Below are positions 1-23,812 of a DNA stretch of 64,000 nucleotides, one piece after another (position 1 is the first letter of the stretch; every line of letters begins with the position of its first letter). The DNA is taken from contig JAHECY010000006.1 in the NCBI GenBank assembly GCA_024641505.1, positions 1,512-65,511 on the forward strand. Reading direction: 5' to 3'. Below the pieces are notes generated by a model. The model was not told where the DNA came from and ran no database searches. It saw only the letters and a list, made by a program, of their open reading frames with translations. The stretch comes from Gammaproteobacteria bacterium (GTDB lineage: Bacteria; Pseudomonadota; Gammaproteobacteria; SG8-11). A program made the position numbers and the translations under genes.

Positions 1-3000
1 CGGCGATCAACACCTTGATGCGCAGCAGCTCCGGATAAAAATACTTTTCCTGATGTTCCAGCGCCACCGCCAACGCCATTTCGATGGTCGCATCCGCCAT
101 ATCGTGACGCGCCGCCTGCAAATACATCTGAGCCAACAAACTGAGAAAATAGGTCTGCGCCAACACTCCGCCACTTTGCCGGAACGATGCCAACGCCGCC
201 TCAAAACTCCGGAGCGCGGCTGACAAATCCCCGTTCCTGGTCAACCATGCGTGCATCATGTCGCCAAACGCCGACCAGAAACTGAAGCCATACTGCCCGG
301 AAATGCGCAAGGCTTCGTCCGTCAACTGCCTGGCCTGTTTTTGATCGCCGGCCAATTCATAAACGATCGCGGAAAAAATCAACGCATAAGCGATGCTGAA
401 CGGATGCTGGATCGCCCGGGCCAGCGCGATGCTTTCCTGCGTCAGCTCCAGCGCGACTGCCTGCTCCCCAAGAAACCATTTGACCAGCGCCGCATTGGAG
501 AGATTCGCCACCAGCGGGTCCTGGCTGTAATCCTGTCCGGCATAGACCTGGGTGGTGGCGGCTTCACGGATCGCGGGTAATCCGGCCTGTAGATACCGGT
601 CCGCCGGCGCGAACTCGCCCAGCCAGAACAGGGTACACCCCATAATGCGATCGGCTTCAATGCGCAACAGGGTGTCCTTCGATTGCGCATCGACAAGCGC
701 CTGCAACTGATCCGCCAACTGCCGCGCCTCGACCAGATTTCCCCGGATATAGTAATAACGCCACAGACCCGCCATGATGGGAAATTTCACCGAGATTTCG
801 CGCACATTCCGGCACAACATGTTGGCACGGGAAAACACCTTTTCCACCTGGGGCGCCGCATAACCCTTACTCATCGACAATGCATACCCGAGCAGGGTTA
901 AACATTCCAATTCCTGGCGCACGTAGGTTTCGGAATCCGCAAGCTGCCGCAACAATTCCAGGCCCTTGTTTAGATGCTCGGCCGCTTCCAGATTGGCATA
1001 GCGGCCGACGGCGATTCTCCCAGCGCTCAGCCAATAGGGCAGTGCCTCGCTGCTGTTACCACTTTCGGTCAGGTGATGCGCATACACCTCCGGGTGACTC
1101 TGGATCTTGTCCGGAAACTGATCCCGGAGAATGCCGGCAATGCGCTTGTGATAGGTTTGCCGAGTGCTTTTCAACAGTGACTGGTAGGCCGTTTCCTGCA
1201 ACAAGGCTTGCCGAAAACAGTAAGAAGCTTCCGGCGGCAGTCCCCGTTGCTGCAGCAAATCGCTGTCCACCAGATCCGCCAATTGTTTTTGCAGTTTTTC
1301 CTCATCCATCGGCACCACCGCACGCAACAGGCTATAAATGAACTCCCTGCCCAGCGTGGCGACCATTTGCGCGAGTTCTTTTTCATCACCGAGCTTGTCG
1401 ATGCTGGCCATCAGGGAATCTTGCAGTGTGGCGGGAATTTGCAGCGCGTACAGCGCGTCGGACAATTCATACCGGCCGCCCTTTTCCTGCAACTTACCCG
1501 ACGCCAGAATCGTTTTCATCAATTCCTCGATGAACAGGGGGATGCCGTCGGTCTTGCTGACGATTTGCCGGAACAGTTCTTCCGGCAAGGCTTTACCTGA
1601 GGCAGTAGCATTGATCAGGCGCCCTACTTGCCGGCGGGACAGGCGGTTGAGACTGATGTGCGTAAGGTAGGAGTGTGGTTTCCAGGGTAACTGAAAATCG
1701 TTGCGAAACGCCAGGAGTACGAACATTCTCCACAATGACGCCTGATCGACCATTAATCTCACTAATTCCATTGTGGAGGGATCGATCCATTGCACGTCGT
1801 CGACGACGATCACCAGAAACTTTCCTTCCGCCATTTTCTGCAGCAAATGAAACAACGCGGTGATGGTTTTGCGTTTACGGATCTGCGGCGATGCATCCGC
1901 GCCGGCGACATCGGGAAATTCATGCATCACGCCCAGCAGTTCGCACACCATCGCCATTTCCTCGGCGCCGCCCAGCGCGTAGCGCGCGAACACGTCCTGT
2001 ATTTTTTCCAGCTTTTGATCGTTGCTCAGTCCGTAACTCAATTTGAAGGTGCGGCTCAGATAACTGGTGACCGCATAAAACGGGCTGTTCCGGTAATGGG
2101 ACGCGCCTTGAATTTCAATGTAGAAATGCGGTTCGACGGACAGGCGTTCGTGTACTTCCCGCAGTAACCGGGTTTTGCCGATGCCGGGCTCGCCGGTAAC
2201 ATAGACCACCTGCCCCGTGCCTTCCAGGGATTGCTCCAATCGGTCGAGCATCAATCCACATTCCTGTTCGCGCCCGATCAGCGGAATCGTCACTTTTTGC
2301 GAGCGTGTGGTCTGGCGCAACGGAAAGTCTGTTTCCCCCGCTACATTGAACAGCTCCATTTCCTGCGAGAAACCTTTGAGTACCTGGCTGCCCTGGGAGA
2401 CGCACTGGAACTCCCCGCCCAGCAGACTCTGCGTAATACCGCTGATGCACACGCCGTTGGGTATCGCGAGACTCTGCAAACGCGCCGCAATATTCGGTGT
2501 CTCGCCCAATGCCAGTCGATCGTTTTCCCCGGATGACTGCTCGCCAATGACGACCAATCCGGTATGGATACCGATGCGCACCTTTAATTCAGCGCCATAC
2601 CGCTGCGCCAGCGTGACTTCAAGTTTTTGAAAAGAATCGATAAGCGCCAGCGCGGCACGCACCGCTCGATTTGGATCGCCCTCGGACGCGACGGGATAAC
2701 CGAAATAGACCAGAATGCCATCGCCCAGGTACTGGGCGATGTGGCCGCCATAGCGGCTGATCACGCCATGACTGCGATCGCGATAAATGGTGATGATTTC
2801 CCGCAGGTCTTCCGGGTCCAGGCGCTCGGAGAGTTGGCTCGAGCCCACCAGGTCAACGAACACCACGGTTAATTGCCGCCGCTCCAGGACATTGGCAATC
2901 TGGCGTGGCGGGGGATTGGATTGCCCGGGACCAGGCCCGCCAACCGCCGCGTCGTTGCCAACCGTCGGTGACAGCGCATGACCGCATTGACCGCAGAACC

Positions 3001-3118
3001 TGAAATGGGGGGGATTTTCCGCCTGACAGGCGGCGCAAAGCGCGGCCAGCGGCGCCGCGCAATTACCGCAATAGCGCATGCCCGCTGGATTGGAAAATTC
3101 GCATTTCGAACATAGCAT
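1..3118 (-). CDS. Adenylate/guanylate cyclase protein with N-terminal double zinc ribbon, central AAA (NB-ARC/STAND-like) ATPase and C-terminal TPR region; 3-prime end runs off window
   Basis: Manual minus-strand translation from ATG at 3118: MLCSKCEFSNPAGMRYCGNCAAPLAALCAACQAENPPHFRFCGQCGHAL (two CxxC pairs). Then a class III cyclase core (VVFVDLVGSSQLSERL...IAQYLGDGILVYFGYP...KVRIGIHTGLVVIGE). Then Walker A GEPGIGKTRLL near 2180. The frame stays open to position 1. It is absent from the ORF track because no stop codon lies inside the window. Plus-strand ORFs 1208-2872 are its antisense shadow, sharing the same codon register. Confidence 0.8.
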   Translation of the reverse strand, partial: MLCSKCEFSNPAGMRYCGNCAAPLAALCAACQAENPPHFRFCGQCGHALSPTVGNDAAVGGPGPGQSNPPPRQIANVLERRQLTVVFVDLVGSSQLSERLDPEDLREIITIYRDRSHGVISRYGGHIAQYLGDGILVYFGYPVASEGDPNRAVRAALALIDSFQKLEVTLAQRYGAELKVRIGIHTGLVVIGEQSSGENDRLALGETPNIAARLQSLAIPNGVCISGITQSLLGGEFQCVSQGSQVLKGFSQEMELFNVAGETDFPLRQTTRSQKVTIPLIGREQECGLMLDRLEQSLEGTGQVVYVTGEPGIGKTRLLREVHERLSVEPHFYIEIQGASHYRNSPFYAVTSYLSRTFKLSYGLSNDQKLEKIQDVFARYALGGAEEMAMVCELLGVMHEFPDVAGADASPQIRKRKTITALFHLLQKMAEGKFLVIVVDDVQWIDPSTMELVRLMVDQASLWRMFVLLAFRNDFQLPWKPHSYLTHISLNRLSRRQVGRLINATASGKALPEELFRQIVSKTDGIPLFIEELMKTILASGKLQEKGGRYELSDALYALQIPATLQDSLMASIDKLGDEKELAQMVATLGREFIYSLLRAVVPMDEEKLQKQLADLVDSDLLQQRGLPPEASYCFRQALLQETAYQSLLKSTRQTYHKRIAGILRDQFPDKIQSHPEVYAHHLTESGNSSEALPYWLSAGRIAVGRYANLEAAEHLNKGLELLRQLADSETYVRQELECLTLLGYALSMSKGYAAPQVEKVFSRANMLCRNVREISVKFPIMAGLWRYYYIRGNLVEARQLADQLQALVDAQSKDTLLRIEADRIMGCTLFWLGEFAPADRYLQAGLPAIREAATTQVYAGQDYSQDPLVANLSNAALVKWFLGEQAVALELTQESIALARAIQHPFSIAYALIFSAIVYELAGDQKQARQLTDEALRISGQYGFSFWSAFGDMMHAWLTRNGDLSAALRSFEAALASFRQSGGVLAQTYFLSLLAQMYLQAARHDMADATIEMALAVALEHQEKYFYPELLRIKVLIA

Positions 3119-3440
3119 TATTGCAGCATCCCTCGGCAAACGTACGTTCCGGGAAGTCCCGTTCGTCCGGCGCTCAAAAGATAATCATTTTAGGCGGGAA
3201 TACCGTGAAAAGGAAGCGTACGTCGCCCAAGATCAACAACTTGTATAACGGACTGATTTGTACGAAGTGCCGGGTATAAAAACATAAAAAAAGTCCTTAA
3301 AAAACGCCGATGCCGAAGACGCAGTAACACTGATTGCAGGGCGCCTATCATGCACGCCGGAAAAACCACCCGTTCCTGGTTTGCGATCTTGCATCCAACC
3401 GTACCATCCTCGATTGACAATGAAAATGGCATCTACAACG

Positions 3441-5021
3441 CTATGGCTTACCCGTAAATTTCAACAAGGGCAGACGCTGATGACACGCATGCAGCAGCAC
3501 CCCGCGGATGTCCGCCAGCGAGACATCGGCGCCACCGTAAAGCTGTGCCTGCAACGCCACCAGCGCCGTTTCCAAGTGTGGCGAACATGGATAATGCCGC
3601 TGCCAGCGGCACAGCCACATATGTAATGTGAGATTTTCCGGCCACGCCTCGGCGCGGGCCGTGTCCAGCAACGCCGCTGTTAGTTGCGCCGGTGTCTGTG
3701 CCTCACGGAGGCGCGCCAACGCCTGACCATAGATTTGCCACACACGCACTCGGCGCGCGGCAACACCATAACCGCGGCGCAGCGCCAGACCGGCCACGAT
3801 CAGCGCCAAGATAGCGCCTGGATAAACTGCCCATGGCGCGAGCACCAGCACCGTGCCCAGCGCTTGCCGGTAGGTGACGATCTTGCCGGTATCGGGGTCG
3901 AAATATTGCACGCGCAACGCGGGTAACGCCAGCAGACCCATGGTCCCGGGAGTAAACGGCTGTTCAATCAGGACATGGCCGGCGGCGCTGATCCTGCTCC
4001 GGGCTGCGCTGGCCATCGGCTCAGCGTCTTGTGACCCACCGTCCTGGGGTGCGGCGTGCTGCGCTGCAACGTCTCGGGATTCAACGTCCGGGAGCGCAGC
4101 CGACACCAGCCGGTGCGGATAAAATTGCAGGTCCCCGTGCGTGTGCAACTGGCGTGTCAGTTCCTGCAGTTCGTGCGCGCGCGCACCCGCGCCGGTGATA
4201 TCAATGCGCAGAAAATTCAGATGCCCCGTCAATAAAAACGGCGCCGCCGGCAACGCCACCTGGACCGCGATGCGACCGATCGGCAGCGTCACCGGCACAT
4301 ACGCGGGCAATGCCCGGACCCGCAGATCGACACGCGGCGGATAAAACCAATGGGTCACGGTACCCCCGCGCCGGTACTTGAGCGCCGGCAACTGCACCGG
4401 CATGGCGCCGCTGCGCAGCGCATAGAGCCGCCAGACGCTTTGATGCTGGGTAAGCTCCCGACCGTCACGGCGCACGGTGCTGCGCACCGGGGATTGCATC
4501 TCGACTTCCAGGCCCGGCGTAGTCGCCGGTTCCGTGTCGAAACCCGCATACCGGAAAGCGCCGGTAATGTGCATCGTCACCTGCACCGGTTGCTTGATCC
4601 AGACCGCCGACTCGCTGATGGTACTGGTCACTTGAATCAGGCTGTGATCCTTGTCGTCCCGGGCGGGCGCCATGGCGACGGTCATGGGTCGGGTGGTGCC
4701 GGTACCGCAGCGTAAGGCTGGCACCTGCAGCGCACCGGGCCGCCGGGCATACAGGCGTAATCGCAGGCTATGGTCGGCGCCGGCGCGCTGCGCCCGGGCA
4801 ATGATGTTACTTTCGATGACGAAATCCCGGTCCAGTGCCGTCAAGTCCAAGGTATCCGAATCAAACTGACCGGCAGGGAGCGTCAGTTGCAGGAGCACCG
4901 GTTTGCCGTATTGGCTTTGCCCGGCGTCGACCGTGAGCTGACATGGCGCCGGCGCGGCCCAAGCCGTCAACGGCAGCAGCCATGCCGCGATTACCAACAG
5001 CCGACAATTGTCGATTACCAT
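3441..5021 (-). CDS. BatD-like protein (signal peptide, large periplasmic domain, C-terminal TM)
   Basis: 526-aa ORF with an N-terminal signal sequence (MVIDNCRLLVIAAWLLPLTAWAAP). Last gene of the MoxR-DUF58-VWA-VWA/TPR-BatD arrangement. Overlaps the upstream gene by 7 nt. Confidence 0.6.
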   Translation of the reverse strand: MVIDNCRLLVIAAWLLPLTAWAAPAPCQLTVDAGQSQYGKPVLLQLTLPAGQFDSDTLDLTALDRDFVIESNIIARAQRAGADHSLRLRLYARRPGALQVPALRCGTGTTRPMTVAMAPARDDKDHSLIQVTSTISESAVWIKQPVQVTMHITGAFRYAGFDTEPATTPGLEVEMQSPVRSTVRRDGRELTQHQSVWRLYALRSGAMPVQLPALKYRRGGTVTHWFYPPRVDLRVRALPAYVPVTLPIGRIAVQVALPAAPFLLTGHLNFLRIDITGAGARAHELQELTRQLHTHGDLQFYPHRLVSAALPDVESRDVAAQHAAPQDGGSQDAEPMASAARSRISAAGHVLIEQPFTPGTMGLLALPALRVQYFDPDTGKIVTYRQALGTVLVLAPWAVYPGAILALIVAGLALRRGYGVAARRVRVWQIYGQALARLREAQTPAQLTAALLDTARAEAWPENLTLHMWLCRWQRHYPCSPHLETALVALQAQLYGGADVSLADIRGVLLHACHQRLPLLKFTGKP

Positions 5022-6856
5022 GGCGGCAACGCCTCCACTTCCCGCGGCGCGTCCAGCGGCGCACTGATCTCCAATTCCCCTTCAAATACACGCTGCCACA
5101 AACTGCTGTCATCGCCGAGCAGATTTGCCGCCCGCAGTTGCATACTGTCATCGGTGGTGGGTTCAAACACCCATTCACTGTCCACAAACTCCTGCGCCTG
5201 GGAAACCACGGGCTGGGCCTGGTAAGCACCGCGCATGGCATCCTGCGCCGCGACGTGAGCGGTATCCGGGGTCGGTTGCGCCGGCGGCGCGTCCGGGGCA
5301 CGGTCGTCCAGCGATAAATTACCACCGGCGACCTCCGTGGCGTCCGGCATGCGGACGCCACGCGGCCCCCGGCCCTGGCCGCCGGTTCCGCCGGTGCTGT
5401 CCTGCTCGACCCGGCGCGCCAGCATGGCTACGGCAAGTTGCAGATTGGTCACCACCGCCGCATCATCCGGCCGGTAGCGCAACACATCCTGGTAGAGCGT
5501 CACCGCCTTGGCATAAGCATCAAGCCGGTAATGACAGTTGGCAAGATTGAACAAAGCATCCGCCCGTTGTTGATCCGTGTCCGCCTCCAGAATGGCCAAG
5601 GTGAATTGTTGAATCGCCATCGGATACGCCTGCAATTGATAGGCGCTGGCACCCTCGCCCATGCGTCCATGATAACCCGGTACTTGGCGGTAGGCTTGTT
5701 GCGCGCGCTGATAGGAGTGTTGCTGATAGGCCAGATAAGCCTGGCGTTGCGCGTCCGCCGCCTGGGCCGGAGTCACCGGCGCGGCGCTTGCCATCACCAG
5801 CGCCAACACCATGAGCGCCGGTGCCGAACTTGCTCCCGAGCGCCGCCGCCAGTGCGCCAACACCAGCAACAGCACCGCCGGCGCCAGCGGCCATTGATAC
5901 AGCTCCCGCCACATCACCAGGGCATTGGGCGTACGCCCGTCATCACCCGCCTCCGCCCGGGCAATGCCGGCGTCATACAGGAAGCGCAAATCGCCGTCAT
6001 CGTCACTCAGGGGCGCGTAACGACCGTTGCCGCGCCGTGCCAGTGTCATCAACAATTTCGTGTTCAACCTGGACACCACTTCCAGGTCCGCATGTCGCAA
6101 CCAGGCGCCATCCGCATCCAGCACCGAAGCCCCCGCCTCGGTGCCGACACCCAACACATGCAGCATCACGCCTTGTTGCGCCAGGGCGTCAACGGTGGCG
6201 AGCAAGTTTGCGCGCTGCGCCGCAGTCAATGCCGGCAGCTCGCCATCGGTCACCAGTAATAACGCGCGCCGCGTCTGCCCGGGGGTGAACGCGGTCAGGG
6301 CGCCTTCCAGAGCCGCCGATAAATTCGATCCGGCGATCGGCACCATGCCATAACGCGGTAACGCGAGAAAATGCCGCAACACGTCGTGGTCCGTGGTCGG
6401 TGGCGTCAACACATGGGCGCTGCCCGCGTACACCAGGACTCCGGTCTTGGTCTGGCGCAGGCGCAGGCTCAGATCCAGTAATTTCAACCGCGCCCGTTCC
6501 AGGCGATCGGGAGTCACATCGCGCGCCGTCATCGATCGCGACAGGTCCCACACGATCATCAATTCCGGCAATTGCGCCGGATCGGGCGTATAGGTGGTTT
6601 GCGCGTAACGTGGCCCCGCCAATGCCAGCCCGAACAAACCCCAGGCCAGCGCTAACAGAACCTGACGCCACCAGTGACGCGGCGTCCACTGGCCGGCAAC
6701 GGTGACCCGCGCCCATGGCTGTAACGACGCCTCCGCATAGGCGGCACCACGCACACGACCGCGCAGCCAATGCAGCAGCGCCAGCAACCAGGGGTAACCG
6801 GCCACCGCCAACCACCAGGGTGCGCGCCATTCGAGCGCGGTCACTTCGAACATCAT
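5015..6856 (-). CDS. VWA domain protein fused to TPR repeats (BatB/BatC-like)
   Basis: N-terminal TM helices, a VWA-like core (LVTDGEL..., MIVWDLSRSM) and C-terminal TPR-like repeats (ALFNLANCHYRLDAYAKAVTLYQDVLRYRPDD). Start chosen at MMFEV, next to the upstream stop. The ORF track's 5-prime extension to 6898 would overlap batA. Confidence 0.6.
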   Translation of the reverse strand: MMFEVTALEWRAPWWLAVAGYPWLLALLHWLRGRVRGAAYAEASLQPWARVTVAGQWTPRHWWRQVLLALAWGLFGLALAGPRYAQTTYTPDPAQLPELMIVWDLSRSMTARDVTPDRLERARLKLLDLSLRLRQTKTGVLVYAGSAHVLTPPTTDHDVLRHFLALPRYGMVPIAGSNLSAALEGALTAFTPGQTRRALLLVTDGELPALTAAQRANLLATVDALAQQGVMLHVLGVGTEAGASVLDADGAWLRHADLEVVSRLNTKLLMTLARRGNGRYAPLSDDDGDLRFLYDAGIARAEAGDDGRTPNALVMWRELYQWPLAPAVLLLVLAHWRRRSGASSAPALMVLALVMASAAPVTPAQAADAQRQAYLAYQQHSYQRAQQAYRQVPGYHGRMGEGASAYQLQAYPMAIQQFTLAILEADTDQQRADALFNLANCHYRLDAYAKAVTLYQDVLRYRPDDAAVVTNLQLAVAMLARRVEQDSTGGTGGQGRGPRGVRMPDATEVAGGNLSLDDRAPDAPPAQPTPDTAHVAAQDAMRGAYQAQPVVSQAQEFVDSEWVFEPTTDDSMQLRAANLLGDDSSLWQRVFEGELEISAPLDAPREVEALPPW

Positions 6857-7917
6857 GGCGCCCTCCGTGACGGCCACCATTGCACCAACACCAGCCACAA
6901 CAATGCCGCGCCCAGGGGCCAGGGATACAGCGCCACCTTGAGGTAGTGCGCGGTGCCGTCGATGGACCGGCGCTCGGCGGCTTGAATCGCCCGCATCGCG
7001 GCATTCAGGGAATCGGCGCTGTCGGCCCAGTAGAAACCGCCGCCGCCGGCCGCGGCAATCACCTTCAACAGTCCGATATTCGCCGGTTCATAGAGCAAAC
7101 CGGCGGCACGCGCTTCGTCCGCCGCGATGCTGGTGGCGCCGATGCCGATGGTGTGCAGGCGGTAGCCCTGCCGGCGCAGGAAATCCGCCACGGCACGGGG
7201 ATCGACATCGCGCCGCGGTCGGTTGACATCCGTCAGCAACACCAGCACCGGCTTTTCCGCGACCGACGGCGGTACTTGGCGCGCCAGCTGGCGCAGCGCA
7301 TAAAGCAGGGCGTTGCCCGGATCGCTGTTGCGACCGGTGAGCACCGCCGGTTCCAGGCGCTGCACCATGGTACGCAATAAATTGTAATCCGCGGTCAGCG
7401 GCACCACGCTATACGCTTGTTCGGAAAAGGCGATCAAGCCGATACGATTTCCGTCCAGGCCGTCGATAAAATGCGTCATCACGCTTTTCAGCAGGGTCAT
7501 GCGGTCCACGCGTTGCCCCGCCATTTGATAGTCACGCAACACCATGCTGATTGACGTATCAAGCAGAAACATCACATCGCGATAGGTCGCGGGCATCGGC
7601 AGTTGCGCACCCGGCACATAAGGATAGGCCAACGCGCCGTGCAGCGTCGCGATCAACACCGCATAACTCAACCAGCGCCGTACCACCGCGCCGGCACCGG
7701 AGCGTTGCGCGACCGGGTCACCGGCATGGCGCAGCAGCGGCCATTGGGGATGGCGGTAACGCGCGCTGCCCAATACTCCGGTCACCTCACGCAACGAAAC
7801 CAATTGGCGTCGCTGCGCCAGCCACGCCAGCACCAGCAACCATGCCCCGCCCGCCCATAACCAGCCGGGATGCTGAAACTGGATAAGCGCCAGCAAAGCA
7901 CCGAGCTGCTGCGCCAT
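6853..7917 (-). CDS. VWA domain-containing membrane protein (BatA-like)
   Basis: The MAQQLGALLALIQ... start gives ATG/TAA overlap with the upstream gene at 7917. Two N-terminal TM helices and a VWA MIDAS-like motif (FLLDTSISM). Confidence 0.65.
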   Translation of the reverse strand: MAQQLGALLALIQFQHPGWLWAGGAWLLVLAWLAQRRQLVSLREVTGVLGSARYRHPQWPLLRHAGDPVAQRSGAGAVVRRWLSYAVLIATLHGALAYPYVPGAQLPMPATYRDVMFLLDTSISMVLRDYQMAGQRVDRMTLLKSVMTHFIDGLDGNRIGLIAFSEQAYSVVPLTADYNLLRTMVQRLEPAVLTGRNSDPGNALLYALRQLARQVPPSVAEKPVLVLLTDVNRPRRDVDPRAVADFLRRQGYRLHTIGIGATSIAADEARAAGLLYEPANIGLLKVIAAAGGGGFYWADSADSLNAAMRAIQAAERRSIDGTAHYLKVALYPWPLGAALLWLVLVQWWPSRRAP

Positions 7918-8354
7918 TAGCGTGATTCCCCGCGCCGGGCGAGCCAGGCAAGTGCGTCGATCGCGGCCTGGCGACACTGGTCCGGCGACGGCGCTTGCGC
8001 GGCGAAGCAATAGTGTTGCAGGCGCATGAGAAATTGCTGCCAGTCCGGTTGGTGTCGCGCGCTGAATGCCACGTCTGACAATTGTGGTTGCGCAAAACCT
8101 TCGCGCAGGCAAAGCACGATACGCCGACATGCCTGACGCGCGTCCCGTTGCTGCGACAGCGACGCGCGCAACACGCGCCGCAACTTGCGCCGCGCCCGCG
8201 GCCGCGGTCGATTACCGAGCACTACGACCGCGGCGACCAATATCACTAATAACGCCATCAACGCCCCGTACCAGCCACCGGCAAGCGCCTCGGTGGCCGG
8301 TGCCGGCGCCACGATATCCACCCAGGTCCCGCCCATTATTACGCTATCGCCCAT
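7917..8354 (-). CDS. Small membrane protein of bat operon (DUF4381-like)
   Basis: ORF between the DUF58 and VWA genes. Single TM (YGALMALLVILVAAVVVLG) followed by a basic stretch, in the position of the DUF4381 gene in Bat operons. Start codon uncertain. Confidence 0.4.
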   Translation of the reverse strand: MGDSVIMGGTWVDIVAPAPATEALAGGWYGALMALLVILVAAVVVLGNRPRPRARRKLRRVLRASLSQQRDARQACRRIVLCLREGFAQPQLSDVAFSARHQPDWQQFLMRLQHYCFAAQAPSPDQCRQAAIDALAWLARRGESR

Positions 8355-9339
8355 GGCCGGGCTCCAGACATGTGCTAATGTCATCGGTGGTGCTGCAGGT
8401 GCGCAGCGCAACGCCGGCTTGTTTGCAACAAGCTTGCAGCACCCATTGCCGTTGCTGAAACAGTTCCTGGTACCGTTGTCGCTGCGTGTGATCCCGGGCA
8501 TCGATGCGCAACTCCTGCGCTACGTCGCCGGTATCGATCAGATAGGCACCGGTCGCGGGCAGACGCTGCTCCACCGGATCGAGTATCTGCTGCGCACGTA
8601 CCGTATGTCGGGCGGCAAGTTGCTGTAACAGCGGCGCGGCAAGTTGCGCGTCGAACGCGGCAAAGTCGCTGAGCAGTAACACGAAACTGCCGCCCGGCAT
8701 CCGATGCGCCAGGTGTCCCAGGATCGAATGCAGATGCGCGTGCGGCGCATCGAAGGCCAGCGGCGTACACGGCGCGATCAGCTGCGCCAGCAAGCCCTGG
8801 GTCAACTGCGCGCCGGCGGCCGGGGCATGCCACTGCGACTCCTGATTCAAAACGCAACCACCTACCGCCAACCCCAGGGACCGCGCGTATTGCAAATAGC
8901 ACACCGCGATTCGCGCCGCAAGCGTGACCTTGAGTTGCCGACGCGTGGCGAAGCGCATGGTGGGACCACGGTCCACCACCAGATACACCTGGGGTCGCCG
9001 CTCCTCCATGAACACCTTGGTGTACAGGGCACCGCTGCGCGCATACAAGCGCCAGTTCAACAAGCGTGGCTCGTCACCAGGTTGGTAGGGCCGATGTTCT
9101 TCAAATTCAAAGCCGCGACCTCGATAAATCGAGGCATGTTCGCCCGTCAAGGCGTGGCTGCTGTGCTGTTGAAAACTGAACAGGGACTCCGGCAACTGTT
9201 GGGTCACAAGCGCCAGACGTTGCAGTTCAGCGTCGTCCAGCAAGGGCCTATGCGTCGGCGCGGGCTTGCCGCCAAAACGCCGGCGATACCGGGTCCACCG
9301 CTCCAGTATCCTATGCGCCGGAGTCATGATGATGTTCAC
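8344..9339 (-). CDS. DUF58 family protein (VWA-like, MoxR partner)
   Basis: 331-aa ORF overlapping the moxR stop by 4 nt (ATGA). Canonical position downstream of MoxR. Conserved DUF58-type stretch (RGRGFEFEEHRPYQPGDEPRLLNWRLYARSGALYTKVF). Confidence 0.65.
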   Translation of the reverse strand: MNIIMTPAHRILERWTRYRRRFGGKPAPTHRPLLDDAELQRLALVTQQLPESLFSFQQHSSHALTGEHASIYRGRGFEFEEHRPYQPGDEPRLLNWRLYARSGALYTKVFMEERRPQVYLVVDRGPTMRFATRRQLKVTLAARIAVCYLQYARSLGLAVGGCVLNQESQWHAPAAGAQLTQGLLAQLIAPCTPLAFDAPHAHLHSILGHLAHRMPGGSFVLLLSDFAAFDAQLAAPLLQQLAARHTVRAQQILDPVEQRLPATGAYLIDTGDVAQELRIDARDHTQRQRYQELFQQRQWVLQACCKQAGVALRTCSTTDDISTCLEPGHGR

Positions 9340-10325
9340 GGCACGGGGATCGCATCCACCAGTCCTTTGATAAGATCATTCGCCGACAGTTGTTTGGCTT
9401 TGGCGGTAAAGCTGAGAATCATCCGGTGACGCAGCACATCGGCGGCGACATCGATGACATCATCGGGAATTACATAGGCACGGCCCTGTAAATAGGCATG
9501 GGCACTGGCGGCTCGGGCCAAGGCGAGCGTGGCTCGGGGCGAAGCACCGTAGTGGATATGGTCGCGCCAGTCGGGTAACCATTTTTCCGGATGCCGCGTG
9601 GCATTAACCAGGCTCACCATATAGCGTTTCACGCTCTCTTCGAGGTGAATCTCCGCGACTTCACGCCGGGCGGCCAACACGGTGGCCGGTTGCAGTTGGC
9701 TCTCCACCGCTTGTTGGTCCGCGCCGAAGTGTAAACGCCGGTCGCGTTCCAGAATTTGAAATTCCTCTTCTTCGCTGGGATAGTCGATCACCACATGCAG
9801 TAGAAAGCGATCCAGTTGCGCTTCCGGCAAGGGATAGGTACCCGCTTGCTCCAGGGGATTTTGCGTCGCCATCACCACGAACAGGTCCGGTAATCGATGG
9901 CTTTTCCCGGCGATGGTCACCTGCTGTTCCTCCATGGCTTCCAGCAATGCCGATTGCACTTTGGGCGGCGCACGGTTGATTTCGTCGGCGAGGATGATTT
10001 CCTTGAATAATGGGCCCTCGACAAAACGAAAATCCCCGGTCTTGGGATCGAAGACCTCACTGCCTGTAATGTCCGCGGGCATCAGATCCGGTGTGAACTG
10101 GATACGCTGAAATCCCGCGTGCACGCCGCTGGCTACCGCCTTTACCGCCGTGGTCTTGGCCAGGCCCGGCGCGCTCTCCAACAGTAAATGCCCGCCGGTC
10201 AGCAGGCCGATCATGATCCGATCCAGCAGCTGGTGTTGCCCGACAATGATACTTTCCAGATGACGGCGTAAAGTGAGAAATTCCGGTTGCGTGTGCATGG
10301 CTATGGCTCTGGGGATCAAGAACAT
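9336..10325 (-). CDS. MoxR-family AAA+ ATPase
   Basis: LLLESAPGLAKTT Walker A and the typical MoxR body (ILADEINRAPPKVQSALLEAMEEQQVTIAG). 329 aa. Confidence 0.85.
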   Translation of the reverse strand: MFLIPRAIAMHTQPEFLTLRRHLESIIVGQHQLLDRIMIGLLTGGHLLLESAPGLAKTTAVKAVASGVHAGFQRIQFTPDLMPADITGSEVFDPKTGDFRFVEGPLFKEIILADEINRAPPKVQSALLEAMEEQQVTIAGKSHRLPDLFVVMATQNPLEQAGTYPLPEAQLDRFLLHVVIDYPSEEEEFQILERDRRLHFGADQQAVESQLQPATVLAARREVAEIHLEESVKRYMVSLVNATRHPEKWLPDWRDHIHYGASPRATLALARAASAHAYLQGRAYVIPDDVIDVAADVLRHRMILSFTAKAKQLSANDLIKGLVDAIPVP

Positions 10326-10335
10326 AGATTAACTC

Positions 10336-10960
10336 AATTTAAGCTGTATGCGTAGGGTGCGAGACGGTGTAACAACCGCGGCTGAAAGGCGCTGCGCAAA
10401 GAATCGGCTTCATCACACCACTGAAGCGCCAGTATCGCTTGGTGCGTAATACGCACCCTACGTGCCACTTGCGCTTGGTTTGTGACGCCGATCAATGTTG
10501 TTACGCAACCCCATTTCCCGTCTGCGATAACGGTGGTATTCTCGATTGGCAAGTAAGATGGTATCAAATTAAAAAATTGTAGGGTGCGTATTACGCACCG
10601 TCTTTATGCTTTATCCAAAGGATTGCCTGGCTCCAAACAAAACACCTAGTGGGTAACAACCGATTGTAGGGTGCGTATTACGCACCGTCTTTTGCTATAT
10701 CCAAGAGATTGCCTGGCTCCAAACAAAACACCTAGTGGGTAACAACCGATTGTAGGGTGCGTATTACGCACCGTCTTTATGCTTTATCCAAAGGATTGCC
10801 TGGCTCCAAACAAAACACATAGTGGGTAACAGCCGATTGTAGGGTGCGTATTACGCACCGTCTTTTGCTATATCCAAGAGATTGCCTGGCTCCAAACAAA
10901 ACACATAGTGGGTAGCAACCGATTGTAGGGTGCGTATTACGCACCGGCTTTTGCTCTTTC
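10336..10960. repeat. REP (palindromic GTAGGGTGCGTAWTACGCACCCTAC) cluster, including a tandem array of five copies at about 86-87 bp spacing with alternating A/B sub-units
   Basis: Palindrome copies begin at about 10347 (partial), 10441, 10578, 10665, 10751, 10838 and 10924. Spacer variants ccgtctttatgctttatccaaaggattgcc and ccgtcttttgctatatccaagagattgcc alternate. Confidence 0.85.
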
Positions 10961-11251
10961 CAAGCGTTTGCTGCGCACCAATAAGAGACATGGTGCGCAA
11001 TACCTGCCCAGGGCACTTCCATTTAAACTGATTCTAACTATTCAATCGCGGTTTTATCGTTTTTTCCTACATCGACACCCAATCTTATCATTGCTCGTTA
11101 TTAACTCCCCGAGGTGGATAAATCCCCTCCTGAAAGTCTATGTAATTACCGTATTTCAGGGCTTCTCGACCCTTACTATTCTGGTAAACTCTCCAGGTCT
11201 TCGAGCGGTACCCAGATCGGTCACCGTTACGTTTTCCACAGGGGGGAAACC

Positions 11252-12817
11252 ATGGACGTCTTGACCACCCACGCTTCGACATCGGGCGACGCCAATCCAT
11301 TGATAAAATTGCGCGCCTGGCAGCGCTTCCATGTGCGCTTGACGGGACTCTATGGGGGAACCGTGCTGGTCTGCCTGTTGCTGATCGGCTTTATCTTTTA
11401 TGCCTCGGGCGTGGACGCCGAAATTCAAGGTCTGCAAAAACGCCTGTTAGCCATGGTCAGCAGCCTGGCCGCCTCGGTGGACGGTGACAAAGTCAGCGCC
11501 ATTCCCCTGGACAGCGGCGAAAATTCTTCTTTTCACCGCGCCATCAAACAACGGTTTCAGGAAGTGGCTGATCTCGACCCTGACGTGGCGACTATTTACA
11601 TCCTGCGGCCTACCAACGAACCGACCAAATTGCGGTTCCTGGTGGATTACGTCAAAGACGGCGAGGAAGGCAAACCCGGCGAGGCTTACGATGCCACCGA
11701 CATACCGGTGATGCTCAAAGGTTTCGCCGCCCCCGCCGTGGAGAACGAGCCCTATACGGATCAGTTCGGCACCACCCTTTCCGGATACGCGCCGATCTAT
11801 AGCAGCACCGGTAAAAGCGTCGGCATCGTCGGCGCTGATGTTCATGTCTCCCGCCTCACCATTTTGGAGCATCAGGTGCGCAACGTGGTGGTGCTGGTGT
11901 TTGGCATTGCGGTACTTCTGATCAGTCTGGTTTCGTTGGCCGTGGCGCACAGCGTGCGCACGCCGCTGAGTAAAATCATCAATGCCGCAGCCGCCGTTGC
12001 CCGCGGCGATTACACGACCCGTATCGATCTCAAGCGTAACGATGAATTCGGCTTGATGAGTCAACACTTCAATAATATGGTGCATGGTCTCAAGGACCGG
12101 GAATTCATCCGGGAAACCTTCGGCCGCTATATGAGTCATGACCTGGCAACCGCCGTACTCAGCACCGAGAAGATGCCGCAACTGGGTGGCGAGGAACGGG
12201 TGGTCACGGTGCTGTTCAGCGATCTGCGGGGCTACTCCACCATGGCGGAACGCCTGCCACCGGTGGCGGTCGTGGAAATGCTCAATGAATATCTTGGTGA
12301 AATGAACGTACTGATCGACAAGTATCACGGGTGCGTGATCGAATTTCTGGGAGATGCCATCCTCGCCGTGTTCGGCGCGCCCTCCTATCAACCGGATCAC
12401 TCGGAAAACGCCGTGCGCTGCGCGATGGAAATGCGCGTGCGTCTGGCGGAACTGAATCAGCGCTGGAGCCAATCGGGATTGGCGCGTTACTGGAAGGGCA
12501 AAGCCCTGGAAAATTGGGGGCTGCGCATCGGCATCCACGCCGGCCCGGTGGTGGCGGGCAATATCGGCAGCCCGACACGCATGAAATACACCGTGATCGG
12601 CGATACCGTTAATGTCGCCGCGCGTCTGGAAAACTTGAACAAGACACTGAAAACCGATGTGCTGATCAGCGATGAAGTGTACGATCATCTGCCCGATGCG
12701 CTGGTGGGCCAGATGAAGGATCAGGGCCAGCACCAGGTGAAAGGGCGGGAACAATCCGTCAGCGTTTACTCCCTGGAAGCCTTGCATGTCGCCAAGGTGG
12801 TTCGATTTTCGAAATAG
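11252..12817 (+). CDS. Membrane-bound adenylate/guanylate cyclase with periplasmic sensor region, HAMP domain and class III cyclase domain
   Basis: Start set at the internal ATG at 11252, preceded by GGGGGGAAAC. Two TM helices flank a roughly 170-aa extracytoplasmic region. HAMP (RIDLKRNDEFGLMSQHFNNMVHGLKD). Cyclase core VVTVLFSDLRGYS...IEFLGDAILAVFGAP...GIHAGPVVAGNIGS...YTVIGDTVNVAARLE. Confidence 0.8.
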   Translation: MDVLTTHASTSGDANPLIKLRAWQRFHVRLTGLYGGTVLVCLLLIGFIFYASGVDAEIQGLQKRLLAMVSSLAASVDGDKVSAIPLDSGENSSFHRAIKQRFQEVADLDPDVATIYILRPTNEPTKLRFLVDYVKDGEEGKPGEAYDATDIPVMLKGFAAPAVENEPYTDQFGTTLSGYAPIYSSTGKSVGIVGADVHVSRLTILEHQVRNVVVLVFGIAVLLISLVSLAVAHSVRTPLSKIINAAAAVARGDYTTRIDLKRNDEFGLMSQHFNNMVHGLKDREFIRETFGRYMSHDLATAVLSTEKMPQLGGEERVVTVLFSDLRGYSTMAERLPPVAVVEMLNEYLGEMNVLIDKYHGCVIEFLGDAILAVFGAPSYQPDHSENAVRCAMEMRVRLAELNQRWSQSGLARYWKGKALENWGLRIGIHAGPVVAGNIGSPTRMKYTVIGDTVNVAARLENLNKTLKTDVLISDEVYDHLPDALVGQMKDQGQHQVKGREQSVSVYSLEALHVAKVVRFSK

Positions 12818-13045: not shown

Positions 13046-13253
13046 ACATCACATTTTCAACATCATGCACCCTATTTGTTCAAAATATTCAGCCATTTAT
13101 AAAACCTTACATATGTTCTCCCTGTAAAGAATTATTACAAATAGACGACAAATGCACTAAGGATTTTAACTGAGTTGTTTACTTTGTTTTACACCTAATA
13201 CAGTGACAACGACTCATTTGCCTTGAATATAACCCCCAAGAGGAGATCGACAC

Positions 13254-13664
13254 ATGCCATTGTTTACCTGGAGTAATGAATACAGCGTGGGCGTAGGTAC
13301 CATGGACAGCCACCACAAAACCCTGTTCGACATCATGAACAAGCTTCATGACGCCATGAAGCAGGGTCAGGCGGAAGACCGCATCGCCGCCACCATCCGC
13401 GAACTGGTGGACTACACTGTATATCACTTCGGTGAAGAAGAAAAAATCATGGAGCGTATCAACTATGCCGGTATCGGCGCGCAAAAACGCGAACATGTCG
13501 TATTTGTGGACAAAATGAACGAGTATAAAGCCAAGGCGGACAAGGGTCAGGCTATCTTCACCGTGGCGGAAGTCGCGGCGACCTCTGTGACATGGCTGCG
13601 GGAACACATTCTGGGCATGGACAAGAAATACGAAGAAACTATGAAGGCGCACGGGATCAAATGA
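13254..13664 (+). CDS. Bacteriohemerythrin (hemerythrin-like O2/iron-binding domain protein)
   Basis: 136 aa. MPLFTWSNEYSVGVGTMDSHHKTLFDIMN...HF.EEE...H motifs typical of single-domain bacterial hemerythrins. Good RBS (agaggag). Confidence 0.8.
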   Translation: MPLFTWSNEYSVGVGTMDSHHKTLFDIMNKLHDAMKQGQAEDRIAATIRELVDYTVYHFGEEEKIMERINYAGIGAQKREHVVFVDKMNEYKAKADKGQAIFTVAEVAATSVTWLREHILGMDKKYEETMKAHGIK

Positions 13665-13682
13665 TCTCTGGTCACTGACCTG

Positions 13683-13722
13683 ACCTCGGGGGGTGCGCAT
13701 CGCACCCCCCTTTTTTTTCCCC
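13683..13722 (+). terminator. Rho-independent terminator after hemerythrin gene
   Basis: ggggggtgcgcatcgcacccccc hairpin followed by a T-run (tttttttt). Confidence 0.6.
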
Positions 13723-14000
13723 CTCGGCAGTACGCAATCCCATTGCAGGTGCGCAGCGTCCCCGCCATTGGTGCTCCCCCCTCGATATTGCGGAATCACA
13801 TTTGGGATGCGCATCGCACCGCTTTTGTTGCGGCCCCTCGTTAGTGCGGAATCACATTCGGGGTGTGCATCGCCCACCCTTTAGTGCGCGCCCTCGACAG
13901 TGCGCACCTTGGGGGCGTATGACGCACCGATCTTTATCTGGTTTTGTCACCATCGAGAGCACATGAACGAAAAGCAAAAGCCGGTGCGTCATACGCACCC
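13683..14000. repeat. Cluster of about 5 degenerate REP-like palindromes (GGTGCG..CGCACC variants)
   Basis: ggtgcgcatcgcacc, gatgcgcatcgcacc, gtgtgcatcgcccacc, ggcgtatgacgcacc and ggtgcgtcatacgcaccctac lie in the convergent intergenic region. Confidence 0.6.
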
Positions 14001-15046
14001 TACGGGGGCAGAATGCTTTCCAGACCGGTAATATGGGTGGTATCGGCGTCACGAGCGAAAGAGGATTCGACAAGCCCGGTAATATCGTTCGTTGTTGACA
14101 ATCCGAAGTGCTGCATGAGATCGGCTATTTTCTGGATATCTGCGTCACGCGGCGCGTAGTTGTCGAAATCGATGCGGTTTTTGGGCGTGTTCAGGGTGTA
14201 CATCACCAGATCGTAGGGCTGACCCCAGTACTTGGAGGCAATGCGTCCGGCTTCCTCCGGATTCTGCTTGGCCCATTGCAGGGCCCGGGCGGCCGCGGTC
14301 ACCATATACTTCACCACCTCCGGCTCATCCTTGATCATGCGGTTTTTGATGATCGTGAGATTGCTGAAAAATCCGGGCCACACTTCCTCGGCATATTTAA
14401 ACTTCTTTGACTCTCCGGACATCAACGTCTTAGCGGCAAACGGTTCGCCGACATAGTACGCATCCAGCGCGCCGGAAGACAATGCCGCGGCCATATCCGG
14501 TGGATTCATTTCCACGACGTTGACCTGACCGGTGAGATTGGCTTTTTCCAATTGCTCCATGATACTCAGATTATGGCCTGAAAACCGCATGGGCACGGCG
14601 ACGGTCTTGCCAATCAAGTCATTCCAGGTATTGCCGTTGAGATCCTTGCGTACCACCAGGGTACTCTCATTGCGGTTACCGACGAGTATGATCTTGACGT
14701 CTTCGCCCTGCTGTCGCAGCACAACGGACAAAGGCGCGATGATAAACGCCGCGTCGATCTGATTATTGCGCAAAGACTCGCCCATTTCCGCGAACGAAGC
14801 GAATTTCAGGGCTTTAAAACGAATGCCTTTGGTTTCCTTGCTCACCTTGTCCAGAATTGGCGCCGCCAGATTGCTGAACACGGGCATATAGCCCATGGTA
14901 ATCACTTTGCGGTCGCTGTCTTCGTTATTGACGTATTCATGCATGAAGGTGATGAAAATCAACCATGCGGTAATCGCCGCCGACAGCTTCCATACCATGG
15001 GCATTTGAGATATGGGTCTAAAATTGTCCCGTTGATTGCTATCCAT
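14000..15046 (-). CDS. ABC transporter substrate-binding protein, NitT/TauT (nitrate/sulfonate/bicarbonate, NMT1-like) family
   Basis: 348 aa with an N-terminal TM/signal (WKLSAAITAWLIFITF) and an NMT1/SsuA-like body. Alternative start at 15004. Confidence 0.75.
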   Translation of the reverse strand: MDSNQRDNFRPISQMPMVWKLSAAITAWLIFITFMHEYVNNEDSDRKVITMGYMPVFSNLAAPILDKVSKETKGIRFKALKFASFAEMGESLRNNQIDAAFIIAPLSVVLRQQGEDVKIILVGNRNESTLVVRKDLNGNTWNDLIGKTVAVPMRFSGHNLSIMEQLEKANLTGQVNVVEMNPPDMAAALSSGALDAYYVGEPFAAKTLMSGESKKFKYAEEVWPGFFSNLTIIKNRMIKDEPEVVKYMVTAAARALQWAKQNPEEAGRIASKYWGQPYDLVMYTLNTPKNRIDFDNYAPRDADIQKIADLMQHFGLSTTNDITGLVESSFARDADTTHITGLESILPP

Positions 15047-17069: not shown

Positions 17070-18050
17070 CTACAACGCCAGAATTTCTTTAGCCAGGGAA
17101 AAATACTGCAATCCGGCACGGCTGCTTTTGTTGTAGTACATAGTGGGCGAGAGCACGATCTGGGACTGAGGTACATTGTCATCCTTTTCGATGATGGTCT
17201 GAAACAGACTACCGGTGAAGGCGCGATTCATCTTGGTATAGATGACTTTTGATGCCATATTGTCACGATCAAACATCGTCACCAGGATATGGGAGCGTAT
17301 ATCATGCTGGGACTTTTCCCGGATTAAATTAATCATGCTCTGAATATGATTGATACCGTTCATGGAAAGAAATTCCGCCTGAGTGCATATCGCCGCCATA
17401 TCCGAAGCCAACAGGGCGTTGAGAGTAAAAAAATCGCCGGACGGCGGCGTATCAATGAGCACGTAGTCGAAATACGGCTTCACCGGCGCCAGCATGTCGC
17501 GCAGCATATACTGAAAGTTCTCACTATTTTGTTGTTTGTTCAGCAATGTCATCTTGGTATTGGACGGTAACAGCCAGAAATAAAGACCGGTTTTCACGAT
17601 GTAGTCCGCCAGGGAATTTTCGGGATCGCTGCTGGCATCGAAAAACGAACGCGCATCACGGTAGTTCAGCAGCAGGCTGAGATTGGCTTGGATATCGAAA
17701 TCAATGACCAATACCCGTTTCTTCATCAATACCAGTGAGGTCGCCAGGTTGAGGCAGGTAGTGGTCTTGGCCACACCGCCCTTCTGGTTGCAAATTGTAA
17801 TTACTTTACAAGACCGGGCTGAATCTGACATATCCATGCCATCGATGATTACCGGCTTTTGCGCCTTGCGCACGAAGTCGGGGTTCGACGCGGCATCCGG
17901 CGCTGGCAATGATAACAATGGTTGCCGAATGGAAAACACATGGCCGCAACGACAACAGCGTGCCCGGGAAACGCGTTTTTCCAATAAATGCTCGTCGATC
18001 CGGTAACGTGTCGCGCACTCGTCACAAGTAACAATCATATGTCCATCCAA
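17070..18050 (-). CDS. ParA/MinD-family ATPase with N-terminal MJ0042-type zinc ribbon
   Basis: The N-terminus MIVTCDECATRYRIDEHLLEKRVSRARCCRCGHVF has CxxC...CxxC. It is followed by a deviant Walker A (KVITICNQKGGVAKTTTCLNLA) and a ParA/MinD body. Confidence 0.75.
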   Translation of the reverse strand: MDGHMIVTCDECATRYRIDEHLLEKRVSRARCCRCGHVFSIRQPLLSLPAPDAASNPDFVRKAQKPVIIDGMDMSDSARSCKVITICNQKGGVAKTTTCLNLATSLVLMKKRVLVIDFDIQANLSLLLNYRDARSFFDASSDPENSLADYIVKTGLYFWLLPSNTKMTLLNKQQNSENFQYMLRDMLAPVKPYFDYVLIDTPPSGDFFTLNALLASDMAAICTQAEFLSMNGINHIQSMINLIREKSQHDIRSHILVTMFDRDNMASKVIYTKMNRAFTGSLFQTIIEKDDNVPQSQIVLSPTMYYNKSSRAGLQYFSLAKEILAL

Positions 18051-18145
18051 TTTTCAGTAAAAAGTTTTAGAACATCGCACTGTGACCAATTTGTCCGCAA
18101 GCACCAACCTGGCAGGCGCCTGCGTCGCACCATGCGTGGTTGCGG

Positions 18146-19225: not shown

Positions 19226-19257
19226 GTTCCCTATCTGTCAGGAGTCGATGTTGATGC

Positions 19258-22767: not shown

Positions 22768-22788
22768 TTTTTTTCCCTCAAAGCCGCC

Positions 22789-23139
22789 TCAGCTTCCCAC
22801 TAAGGCGAGAATCTGTTCGGATTTGTGTTTATTCACCAGACCAATGGCGCCGATGCGTTCCACTTCCCCGCGGTATTTATCCTCATCCATATTGGAGAGA
22901 ATCAGGATGCGCGCCTTGGCGTCTCGAGCCATGATTTCCTTAGCCGCGGTAATCCCATCCATGCCCCGCATGGTGATATCCATGGTGACCAGATCCGGGC
23001 GCAGACGCTCATACATTTCCAGTGCATCGGCGCCATTGGCCGCCTCCCCTACCACCTCATGGCCAGCATCACGCAAGGTTTTGACGATCACCTTGCGCAT
23101 CATGGTCGAGTCTTCCACCACCAGTATTCGCTTGCTCAT
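22789..23139 (-). CDS. cheY: CheY-like single-domain response regulator
   Basis: 116 aa. ILVVEDSTMMR...DLVTMDITMRGMDG...K motif set of a REC domain. Confidence 0.85.
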   Translation of the reverse strand: MSKRILVVEDSTMMRKVIVKTLRDAGHEVVGEAANGADALEMYERLRPDLVTMDITMRGMDGITAAKEIMARDAKARILILSNMDEDKYRGEVERIGAIGLVNKHKSEQILALVGS

Positions 23140-23179
23140 ATCCGCTTCCTGTAATCTTTAACCCTTATGCCCGGCTTAC

Positions 23180-23722: not shown

Positions 23723-23812
23723 GTTGCATCTCCTGTAAAACGCCGCCGACCGGTCGCCGCCCTGTCCGGTATTCCCGGACAGGCACGGCGATTGATCGCG
23801 CCCATGCTACGC

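Follow-up and report, generated by a model that had tools for sequence, protein, structure and literature searches.

What does it mean when an operon of the Bat type (Bat, Bacteroides aerotolerance) lies between two class III nucleotide cyclases? The question is raised by a contig from a gammaproteobacterium of the SG8-11 lineage (GenBank assembly GCA_024641505.1, contig JAHECY010000006.1, positions 1,512 to 65,511); the whole stretch of 64,000 nucleotides that was analysed is referred to here as the window. Near its left end, six Bat-like genes are flanked by a cytoplasmic cyclase with a STAND-type ATPase (the STAND cyclase) and by a membrane receptor with Cache, HAMP and cyclase domains (the HAMP cyclase). 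A sequence-only reading had seen in this arrangement a possible link between the Bat system and cAMP/cGMP signalling. Such a link, if true, would be a regulatory input, and the first handle on what Bat/MoxR-VWA systems respond to. The comparison with other genomes does not bear it out. Our preferred reading, to which we give a probability of roughly 80%, is that the Bat operon and both cyclases adjoin by genomic accident and share no function.

The evidence on the operon side is as follows. The only close homologue of the BatD protein in the protein collection lies in a locus (L007) with the same six-gene order and with an RND membrane-fusion gene upstream of its moxR. A metagenome scan with the VWA-TPR protein gave two more operons, one with the same six-gene order on a 239-kb contig (L009) and one partial copy (L008). 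The former is preceded by genes for TauE, a VTT-rhodanese protein and a fatty-acid hydroxylase, and is followed by a methyltransferase (directly after BatD), endonuclease I and an unknown 1188-aa protein. No class III cyclase was found in the flanks of any of these three operons; an alignment scan of species-representative genomes with the VWA-TPR protein yielded no relatives, and the source organism and its near kin seem to be missing from that set. A genome scan anchored on MoxR covered 80 loci across bacteria (GTDB species representatives, 1.34 Mb in total). Among them a class III cyclase domain turned up just once, at a distance of 9 kb from moxR and in a locus of another type than Bat (L062). 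This single domain was returned by two methods that agree: iterative profile searches started from both cyclase domains of the window, and a hidden Markov model of 240 cyclase domains from the two subfamilies. Operons of the Bat type, defined by DUF58 plus at least two VWA genes, numbered 17 in other genomes (with a recognisable BatD in 7), and their flanks, 120 kb upstream and 57 kb downstream, held no class III cyclase. The sequence-only reading had itself stated that the Bat–cyclic-nucleotide link would be refuted if the cyclases proved not to be conserved neighbours of Bat operons in related genomes, and this is what the co-occurrence survey returned.

The same picture emerges from the cyclases. 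As to the STAND cyclase, its two nearest homologues (63% identity) are found beside HDOD/HD genes in one case and beside an OmpA-like protein of more than 1485 aa in the other, with no Bat operon near either. Five orthologues of the HAMP cyclase (76, 70, 62, 60 and 57% identity) occupy five different neighbourhoods, none of them Bat-type (0/5). The metagenome-assembled genome GCA_002448875.1 encodes homologues of both cyclases, on separate contigs. There, the HAMP cyclase has an H+-pyrophosphatase on its left, in the place of the Bat operon, and a conserved hemerythrin on its right. In the window, this neighbour lies beyond the genes that had been described before:

13254–13664, plus strand: hemerythrin, 136 aa, right of the HAMP cyclase (PF01814, 6.5e-16).

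It shares 90% identity with the hemerythrin encoded downstream of the 76% orthologue (L090/L091, GCA_002448875.1) and is the sole neighbour of the HAMP cyclase kept in the nearest relative; the pairing of cyclase and hemerythrin is conserved there only. In another locus (L092), pilS, pilR, pilin genes, pilB and pilC come after the HAMP-cyclase orthologue, in synteny with the window at 33–42 kb. By the hemerythrin and pilSR synteny on the right, the HAMP cyclase belongs to the block on that side, and not with the Bat operon; the repeat-filled spacer on its left is a synteny break.

One of the 63% homologues of the STAND cyclase deserves mention in its own right. It is located in L003 among HDOD-HD, HD_5 and cyclic-nucleotide (cNMP)-binding proteins (443–1318, 4904–6031 and 12087–12572), a neighbourhood for which a tie to cyclic-nucleotide signalling looks more plausible than for the Bat operon.

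Genes and domains of the window were called by a six-frame scan and Pfam searches. All genes named in the sequence-only reading were found where it had placed them or within a few bases, and its assignment of MoxR, DUF58, DUF4381-like, VWA, VWA-TPR and BatD genes between two class III cyclases is upheld by Pfam and by homologues; taken as a whole, the domain matches far exceed what chance would give. The six-gene operon occupies 3441–10298 on the minus strand, in the order:

9336–10298, minus strand: MoxR AAA+ ATPase of the AAA_3 subfamily, 320 aa, which opens the operon (PF07726, 6.4e-63; AAA_lid_2, 2.4e-21).
8344–9339, minus strand: DUF58 protein, 331 aa, directly after MoxR with a 4-nt overlap (PF01882, 9.1e-34).
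7917–8354, minus strand: small single-pass membrane protein, DUF4381-like, 145 aa (PF14316, 9.3e-6).
6853–7917, minus strand: BatA-like VWA membrane protein, 354 aa, with metal ion-dependent adhesion site (MIDAS) motif DTSIS and transmembrane segments (VWA, 1e-14).
5015–6856, minus strand: BatB/BatC-like fusion, 613 aa, with VWA domain (MIDAS motif DLSRS), transmembrane helix and then TPR (VWA_2, 8.4e-14; TPR_2, 1.9e-5).
3441–5021, minus strand: BatD-like protein, 526 aa, with signal peptide, periplasmic beta-rich region, transmembrane helix (aa 391–409) and cytoplasmic tail (Pfam BatD, 4.5e-3, and homologues).

From MoxR to BatD, successive genes overlap by 4, 11, 1, 4 and 7 nt, which points to translational coupling. 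Three of the assignments need comment. The score of the third protein against DUF4381 (26.5 bits) is slightly below the Pfam cut-off of 27.2, so that the label ‘DUF4381-like’ is fair; its orthologues hold the same operon position in L007 and L009. The direct Pfam match of BatD is sub-threshold (4.5e-3), and its homologues (38% identity, E 1e-104) pass the threshold at 39–47 bits, as do the corresponding proteins of L008 and L009 the gathering score; the assignment therefore holds by transitivity. The NCBIfam models for BatA, BatB and BatC are Leptospira-specific and were matched far below their cut-offs; the BatC model matches the TPR part of the VWA-TPR fusion (8.4e-7), while the BatA and BatB matches are domain-level. 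As to MoxR, the 320-aa form is identical to a product called in a public assembly, where it occurs only on a 1.7-kb contig; an exact look-up of the 329-aa form of the open reading frame in public records gave no match.

Judged by its sequence, the locus has all the defining features of a Bat-type operon that were tested, except BatE: the overlapping chain holds no further gene for such a TPR/SH3 protein as found in Bacteroides, and the next gene, after 322 bp, is the cyclase. Like the Bat/MoxR-VWA operons of Bacteroides, Leptospira, Borrelia and Riemerella, it combines MoxR AAA_3, DUF58, two MIDAS VWA membrane proteins, a TPR module and BatD in one co-directional cluster. It differs from these in that the BatC-like TPR module is fused to the BatB-like VWA protein, in the extra DUF4381-like protein, in the missing BatE and in a very divergent BatD (38% identity to its nearest relative, and 3 matches in a word-indexed search of 5.8 billion proteins). 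Conservation against L007 and L009 drops steeply along the operon, from 78% identity for MoxR through 43–49% for VWA-TPR to 38% for BatD. The locus thus offers a clean six-gene variant of the system, marked by the BatB-BatC fusion and the DUF4381-like protein, by the lack of BatE and by this gradient of conservation. An aerotolerance or stress phenotype of Bat systems is disputed even in model organisms; deletion of bat genes in Leptospira gave no oxidative-stress phenotype (PMC3557215). The Borrelia VWA protein BB0173 is located in the inner membrane (PMC5700661). On the strength of the present locus, cNMP signalling is no basis for interpreting what Bat systems do.

The two gaps that separate the operon from its flanking cyclases differ in length and orientation. 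The STAND cyclase lies 322 bp downstream of BatD on the same strand; the HAMP cyclase lies 953 bp upstream of MoxR and is divergent.

3119–3440, intergenic: spacer between BatD stop and STAND-cyclase start, 322 bp, 48% GC, with a T-rich tract and long T-runs.
10299–11251, intergenic: divergent region between MoxR and the HAMP cyclase, 953 bp, 47% GC, with six palindromes GTAGGGTGCGTATTACGCACC resembling repetitive extragenic palindromes (REPs), from repeat scans.
10441–10971, 13983–14003, 31022–31202, 32658–32678 and 47459–47807, intergenic: sites of GTAGGGTGCGTATTACGCACC in the window, from a pattern count.

The element GTAGGGTGCGTATTACGCACC consists of GTAG, a 7-bp stem and a 3-nt loop, a form that we take to be that of REP elements. 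It occurs in 16 copies at five intergenic sites of the window, against 0 expected, and builds tandem arrays with an 86-bp unit (4.6 copies) and a 110-bp unit (2.6 copies). In the divergent region, five copies lie in the 86-bp array at 10576–10971 and one inverted copy at 10441–10461. The region is filled by these six palindromes and is not a compact shared regulatory region; the ‘terminators’ called in 10583–10945 are REP hairpins. Among the fetched loci, GTAGGGTGCGTATTACGCACC was found only in L001, a contig of the same organism that ends within the array; the public short-read contig of 1.7 kb with the 320-aa MoxR breaks exactly at this array. Of the open reading frames of the window that were scanned, none is RAYT-like. 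In the shorter spacer, the scan for promoters and terminators gave nothing convincing, and the predicted fold is no stabler than shuffled sequence (z-score 0.09). Scan counts for both spacers are at or below shuffled expectation and uninformative. An Rfam search of the whole window at gathering thresholds returned no match.

Several alternatives to chance adjacency can be framed, and they draw partly on the same observations. A coupling restricted to this lineage would have cNMP from a flanking cyclase regulate the Bat operon or complex, or would have TPR contacts pass a signal from the Bat complex to the STAND cyclase. The cyclases do adjoin the operon immediately on both sides, and the 64-kb window has no cyclase domain besides their two; the STAND cyclase runs in the same direction as BatD with no clear terminator between them, and a CRP-like site with two mismatches (10481–10496) is located upstream of moxR. 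This site was rejected as evidence for a link, as the window has 17 CRP-like boxes where 23.5 would be expected, which does not exceed chance. The adjacency is kept in 0/17 Bat-type operons and in 0/7 contexts of cyclase homologues, neither the Bat proteins nor the other genes of the window encode a cNMP-binding or phosphodiesterase domain, and the literature searched contains no paper that names MoxR, DUF58 and adenylate cyclase together. We therefore consider such a coupling highly improbable. Its most explicit version, in which the Bat membrane complex of this lineage is wired to cyclic-nucleotide signalling by a STAND cyclase that is co-transcribed with batD and senses the Bat state through its TPRs, or by Cache-HAMP-derived cGMP that controls the divergent moxR promoter, is if anything more remote still. 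A weaker claim is that the STAND cyclase is the seventh gene of the transcription unit, co-expressed by read-through from BatD in the absence of any conserved or mechanistic link. The shared strand, the gap of 322 bp, the empty terminator scan and the unremarkable fold of the spacer are all consistent with this. The true intra-operon junctions all overlap by 1–11 nt, however, the gap is AT-rich with long T-runs, the ATG of the cyclase is preceded by a Shine-Dalgarno-like GAGGGA of its own, and in L009 the corresponding place is taken by the methyltransferase; read-through is thus unlikely, although less so than a coupling.

A further alternative concerns origin, and is compatible with chance adjacency: the Bat operon may be a horizontally acquired island between two resident cyclase genes. 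The Bat genes at 3441–9339 have a GC content of 62–65%, against 47–58% in the cyclases, MoxR and the spacers, the moxR-side junction is marked by the REP array, and in the nearest relative the H+-pyrophosphatase takes the place left of the HAMP cyclase. The composition argument is weakened by the GC content at third codon positions, which is close to that of the neighbours (0.71–0.76 for the Bat genes and 0.69–0.71 for the cyclases), and by the homologous operon at L009:5164–12022, which is likewise GC-richer than its flanks (56–63% against 42–51%); the excess may stem largely from proteins rich in Ala, Arg, Gly and Pro rather than from horizontal transfer. In addition, neither an integrase nor a tRNA nor direct repeats came to light, and the 63% homologue of the STAND cyclase may not be a true orthologue. 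An island is accordingly doubtful, if somewhat less so than read-through.

Chance adjacency itself has to face some awkward facts. Were about one gene in a hundred (1%) a cyclase gene, an operon flanked on both sides by them would be rare a priori. The co-orientation of the STAND cyclase with BatD and the lack of a clear terminator between them leave room for read-through, and the closest Bat homologues are distant enough (BatD 38%, VWA-TPR 43–49%) for a very recent lineage-specific association. The downstream flanks of several comparison loci are 3–4 kb long. Finally, the locus of the 60% HAMP-cyclase orthologue (L095, GCA_020347585.1) has two unrelated pairs of MoxR-class AAA_5 and VWA-type genes within 10 kb of the cyclase. 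Neither pair is Bat-type and several unrelated genes lie between, so that this is probably coincidence. For these reasons, namely the distance of the homologues, the batD/STAND-cyclase junction and a conclusion drawn from the window rather than the whole source genome, about 5–10% of residual uncertainty remains attached to the verdict of coincidence. Where a genome is rich in cyclases, finding one beside a given operon by chance is nothing remarkable if many windows have been scanned.

The L095 pairs themselves comprise an AAA_5 gene with a DUF2201_N fragment (L095:3125–4171) and a CbbQ-type AAA_5 gene with a 743-aa VWA protein (L095:18043–21587).

With chance adjacency as the preferred reading, the locus would consist of three independent units side by side in a core chromosomal region of an uncultured organism, namely the Bat operon, the STAND cyclase and the Cache-HAMP cyclase. 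By analogy with MoxR/VWA systems, a cytoplasmic MoxR AAA+ hexamer would, together with DUF58, spend ATP on remodelling or inserting the MIDAS VWA membrane proteins, which in turn would form an inner-membrane/periplasmic complex with BatD. In the STAND cyclase, the TPR sensor probably governs the nucleotide-dependent oligomerisation of a MalT-type ATPase and, through this, the dimerisation and hence the activity of the cyclase. The HAMP cyclase would be a conventional transmembrane receptor, in which a periplasmic Cache domain signals via HAMP to the class III cyclase. A cyclase-rich genome and a REP-marked, rearrangement-prone junction would ease the flanking of one operon by two such genes by chance. 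All parts of the locus are further members of already known kinds.

The cyclase on the left has the following domains:

2–3118, minus strand: cytoplasmic class III cyclase with STAND ATPase and TPR array, of whose 1090 aa the N-terminal 1039 lie within the window, start ATG at 3118 (Pfam).
2981–3112, minus strand: double zinc ribbon, aa 3–46 (PF12773 DZR, 3.4e-9).
2345–2875, minus strand: class III cyclase catalytic domain, aa 82–258 (PF00211, Guanylate_cyc, 2e-18; aligned to CyaB, 3r5g, and Cya2, 2w01).
1733–2284, minus strand: STAND-type P-loop ATPase (AAA_16), aa 279–462, with Walker A GEPGIGKT and Walker B VIVVDD (PF13191, 8.4e-23).
56–502, minus strand: TPR/MalT-like repeats, aa 873–1021, running on beyond the window edge (TPR_12, 8.6e-6; TPR_MalT, 8.4e-5).

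That this protein exceeds 1039 aa and is cut by the window edge, as had been noted before, is confirmed by a full-length identical protein (P0001, 100%) of 1090 aa on a Logan contig (L002:5802–9074), of which 51 aa fall outside the window. The next gene outward encodes a multihaem cytochrome. The earlier description of the domains stands for the double zinc ribbon, the cyclase, a STAND-type ATPase and the TPRs; the term ‘NB-ARC-like’ does not, since the NB-ARC match is sub-threshold (5.4e-4) and ‘MalT/AAA_16-type STAND’ is the more accurate name by profile match. The protein has what is expected of a STAND NTPase, a P-loop bearing Walker A and B motifs and, after it, a TPR sensor array; the Walker A Lys315 is invariant among 120 homologues. 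The architecture has at least 8000 homologues, with several paralogues per genome and one species name recurring among the top matches. By precomputed Pfam domains, nearly all of the top 120 (all but about 3) have the zinc ribbon, the cyclase and AAA_16, at a length of about 1100 aa. This zinc-ribbon/cyclase/STAND/TPR ‘giant’ is among the commonest cyclase architectures in the database. One source labels a member of the family ‘Proteins incorrectly called adenylate cyclase’.

The cyclase on the right is likewise as it had been described:

11252–12817, plus strand: membrane receptor cyclase, 521 aa (HAMP, 7.6e-14; Guanylate_cyc, 2.3e-30).
11414–11884, plus strand: Cache/PDC domain.
11942–12094, plus strand: HAMP domain.
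12200–12775, plus strand: cyclase domain.

Its order is transmembrane helix 1 (aa 36–54), periplasmic Cache/PDC (55–211), transmembrane helix 2 (212–230), HAMP (231–281) and cyclase (317–508). The AlphaFold model of the periplasmic part has a mean confidence score (pLDDT) of 93, and its Foldseek matches are Cache/PDC sensors (Tlp3, KinD, CitA), so the model suggests a single Cache/PDC domain. The family is well conserved: homologues P0124–P0243 share 50–87% identity along their full length, and at least 4229 homologues were counted at E ≤ 1e-20.

Both cyclase domains were aligned to Pseudomonas aeruginosa CyaB (3r5g) and to the Synechocystis guanylyl cyclase Cya2 (2w01), which are the best solved-structure matches for both, and the key positions were scored in an alignment of 120 members per family. 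In the STAND cyclase, the metal-binding residues D89 and D133 and the transition-state residues N209 and R213 are invariant in all 120 homologues; in the HAMP cyclase, the same holds for D324, D368, N454 and R458. As these catalytic residues are intact, both enzymes are probably active. The pair of Lys and Asp that specifies ATP in canonical adenylyl cyclases is missing in both, which answers in part the earlier suggestion to distinguish ATP from GTP as substrate by residues. The STAND cyclase has Gln129 at the Lys position (Gln in 111/120) and Leu202 at the Asp position (mostly Leu or Met in the family), an unusual combination near that of Rv0386. The HAMP cyclase has Glu364 (Glu in 120/120) and Thr447 (Ala, Ser, Thr or Gly in the family), and is guanylyl cyclase-like. 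Guanylyl cyclases combine Glu at the Lys position with C, S, T, H, A or G at the second (PMC4215837), and the HAMP cyclase, with its Glu and small T447, fits this rule. Because the invariant Glu aligns with that of Cya2, the Cache-HAMP-cyclase family is predicted to prefer GTP over ATP, and thus to make cGMP. This yields a testable, residue-based prediction: that a family with Glu in 120/120 members makes cGMP and not cAMP. In Cya2, the second position is Gly and is joined by a guanylyl-boosting Tyr, as opposed to Thr447 and Ala here. Sequence alone is reportedly an imperfect predictor of the specificity of bacterial cyclases, as Ryu et al. in 2015 are said to have found. With somewhat less than even odds, this family with its invariant Glu may constitute a widespread family of bacterial guanylyl cyclase receptors.

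Comparison with characterised systems places both proteins further. Mycobacterial and cyanobacterial HAMP-cyclase receptors (Rv3645, Rv1319c) have two transmembrane helices, an extracytoplasmic sensor, HAMP and a class III cyclase; the layout of the window receptor is alike, and it differs in its single Cache/PDC domain and in the invariant Glu for Lys. Whereas the sensor module here is Cache-HAMP, that of CyaB is MASE2. Among the closest parallels to the STAND cyclase is Mycobacterium tuberculosis Rv0386 (also Rv1358 and Rv2488c), which equally combines an N-terminal class III cyclase, a STAND ATPase and TPRs in about 1085–1090 aa and has Gln for Lys. As summarised in a preprint passage that cites Castro et al. 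2005, Rv0386 is a class IIIc cyclase-ATPase-TPR-LuxR protein whose Gln-Asn pair gives an adenylyl cyclase with guanylyl side activity (bioRxiv 10.1101/2024.03.06.583649). The window protein differs in its N-terminal double zinc ribbon and in Leu (family Leu/Met) in place of Asn, and no C-terminal LuxR/GerE helix-turn-helix was found among the Pfam matches of the window protein or the precomputed domains of full-length P0001; an identity as an Rv0386-type cyclase/LuxR regulator was therefore rejected.

Two further identities were tried and set aside. The cyclase-AAA-TPR part of the STAND cyclase aligns to positions 283–1251 of the model for TOMM kinase/cyclase fusions (NCBIfam TIGR03903, E 2.5e-166), but its 555.7 bits are below the cut-off of 705.75, the kinase domain is absent with a zinc ribbon instead, and no TOMM biosynthesis genes were found near it. 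A Pycsar anti-phage cyclase was suggested by PADLOC PycC matches (1e-18 to 4e-27), which reflect the shared cyclase fold; this reading was rejected, as an adjacent cNMP-activated effector gene is lacking and neither the multidomain receptor nor the STAND architecture matches such a system.

The remainder of the window contains an ABC transporter, a Che/Chp-like cluster, type IV pilus genes, secA, lpxC and the dcw cluster. The chemosensory cluster (17070–28284) is located between the HAMP cyclase and pilSR/pilBCD and comprises a ParA-like ATPase with an N-terminal zinc ribbon, two CheB-like proteins, a 1169-aa CheA with Hpt, CheW, a methyl-accepting chemotaxis protein with a 4HB sensor and a receiver protein. 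Compared with L092, this cluster and the ABC transporter look like an insertion of about 20 kb between the cyclase and pilS. Next to the HAMP cyclase, a minus-strand open reading frame (13179–13877, 232 aa) that overlaps the hemerythrin gene has no Pfam match and is probably spurious. Downstream of the hemerythrin gene and beside a copy of GTAGGGTGCGTATTACGCACC, a 56-bp imperfect tandem repeat extends over 13719–13904 (3.3 copies, 74% matches).

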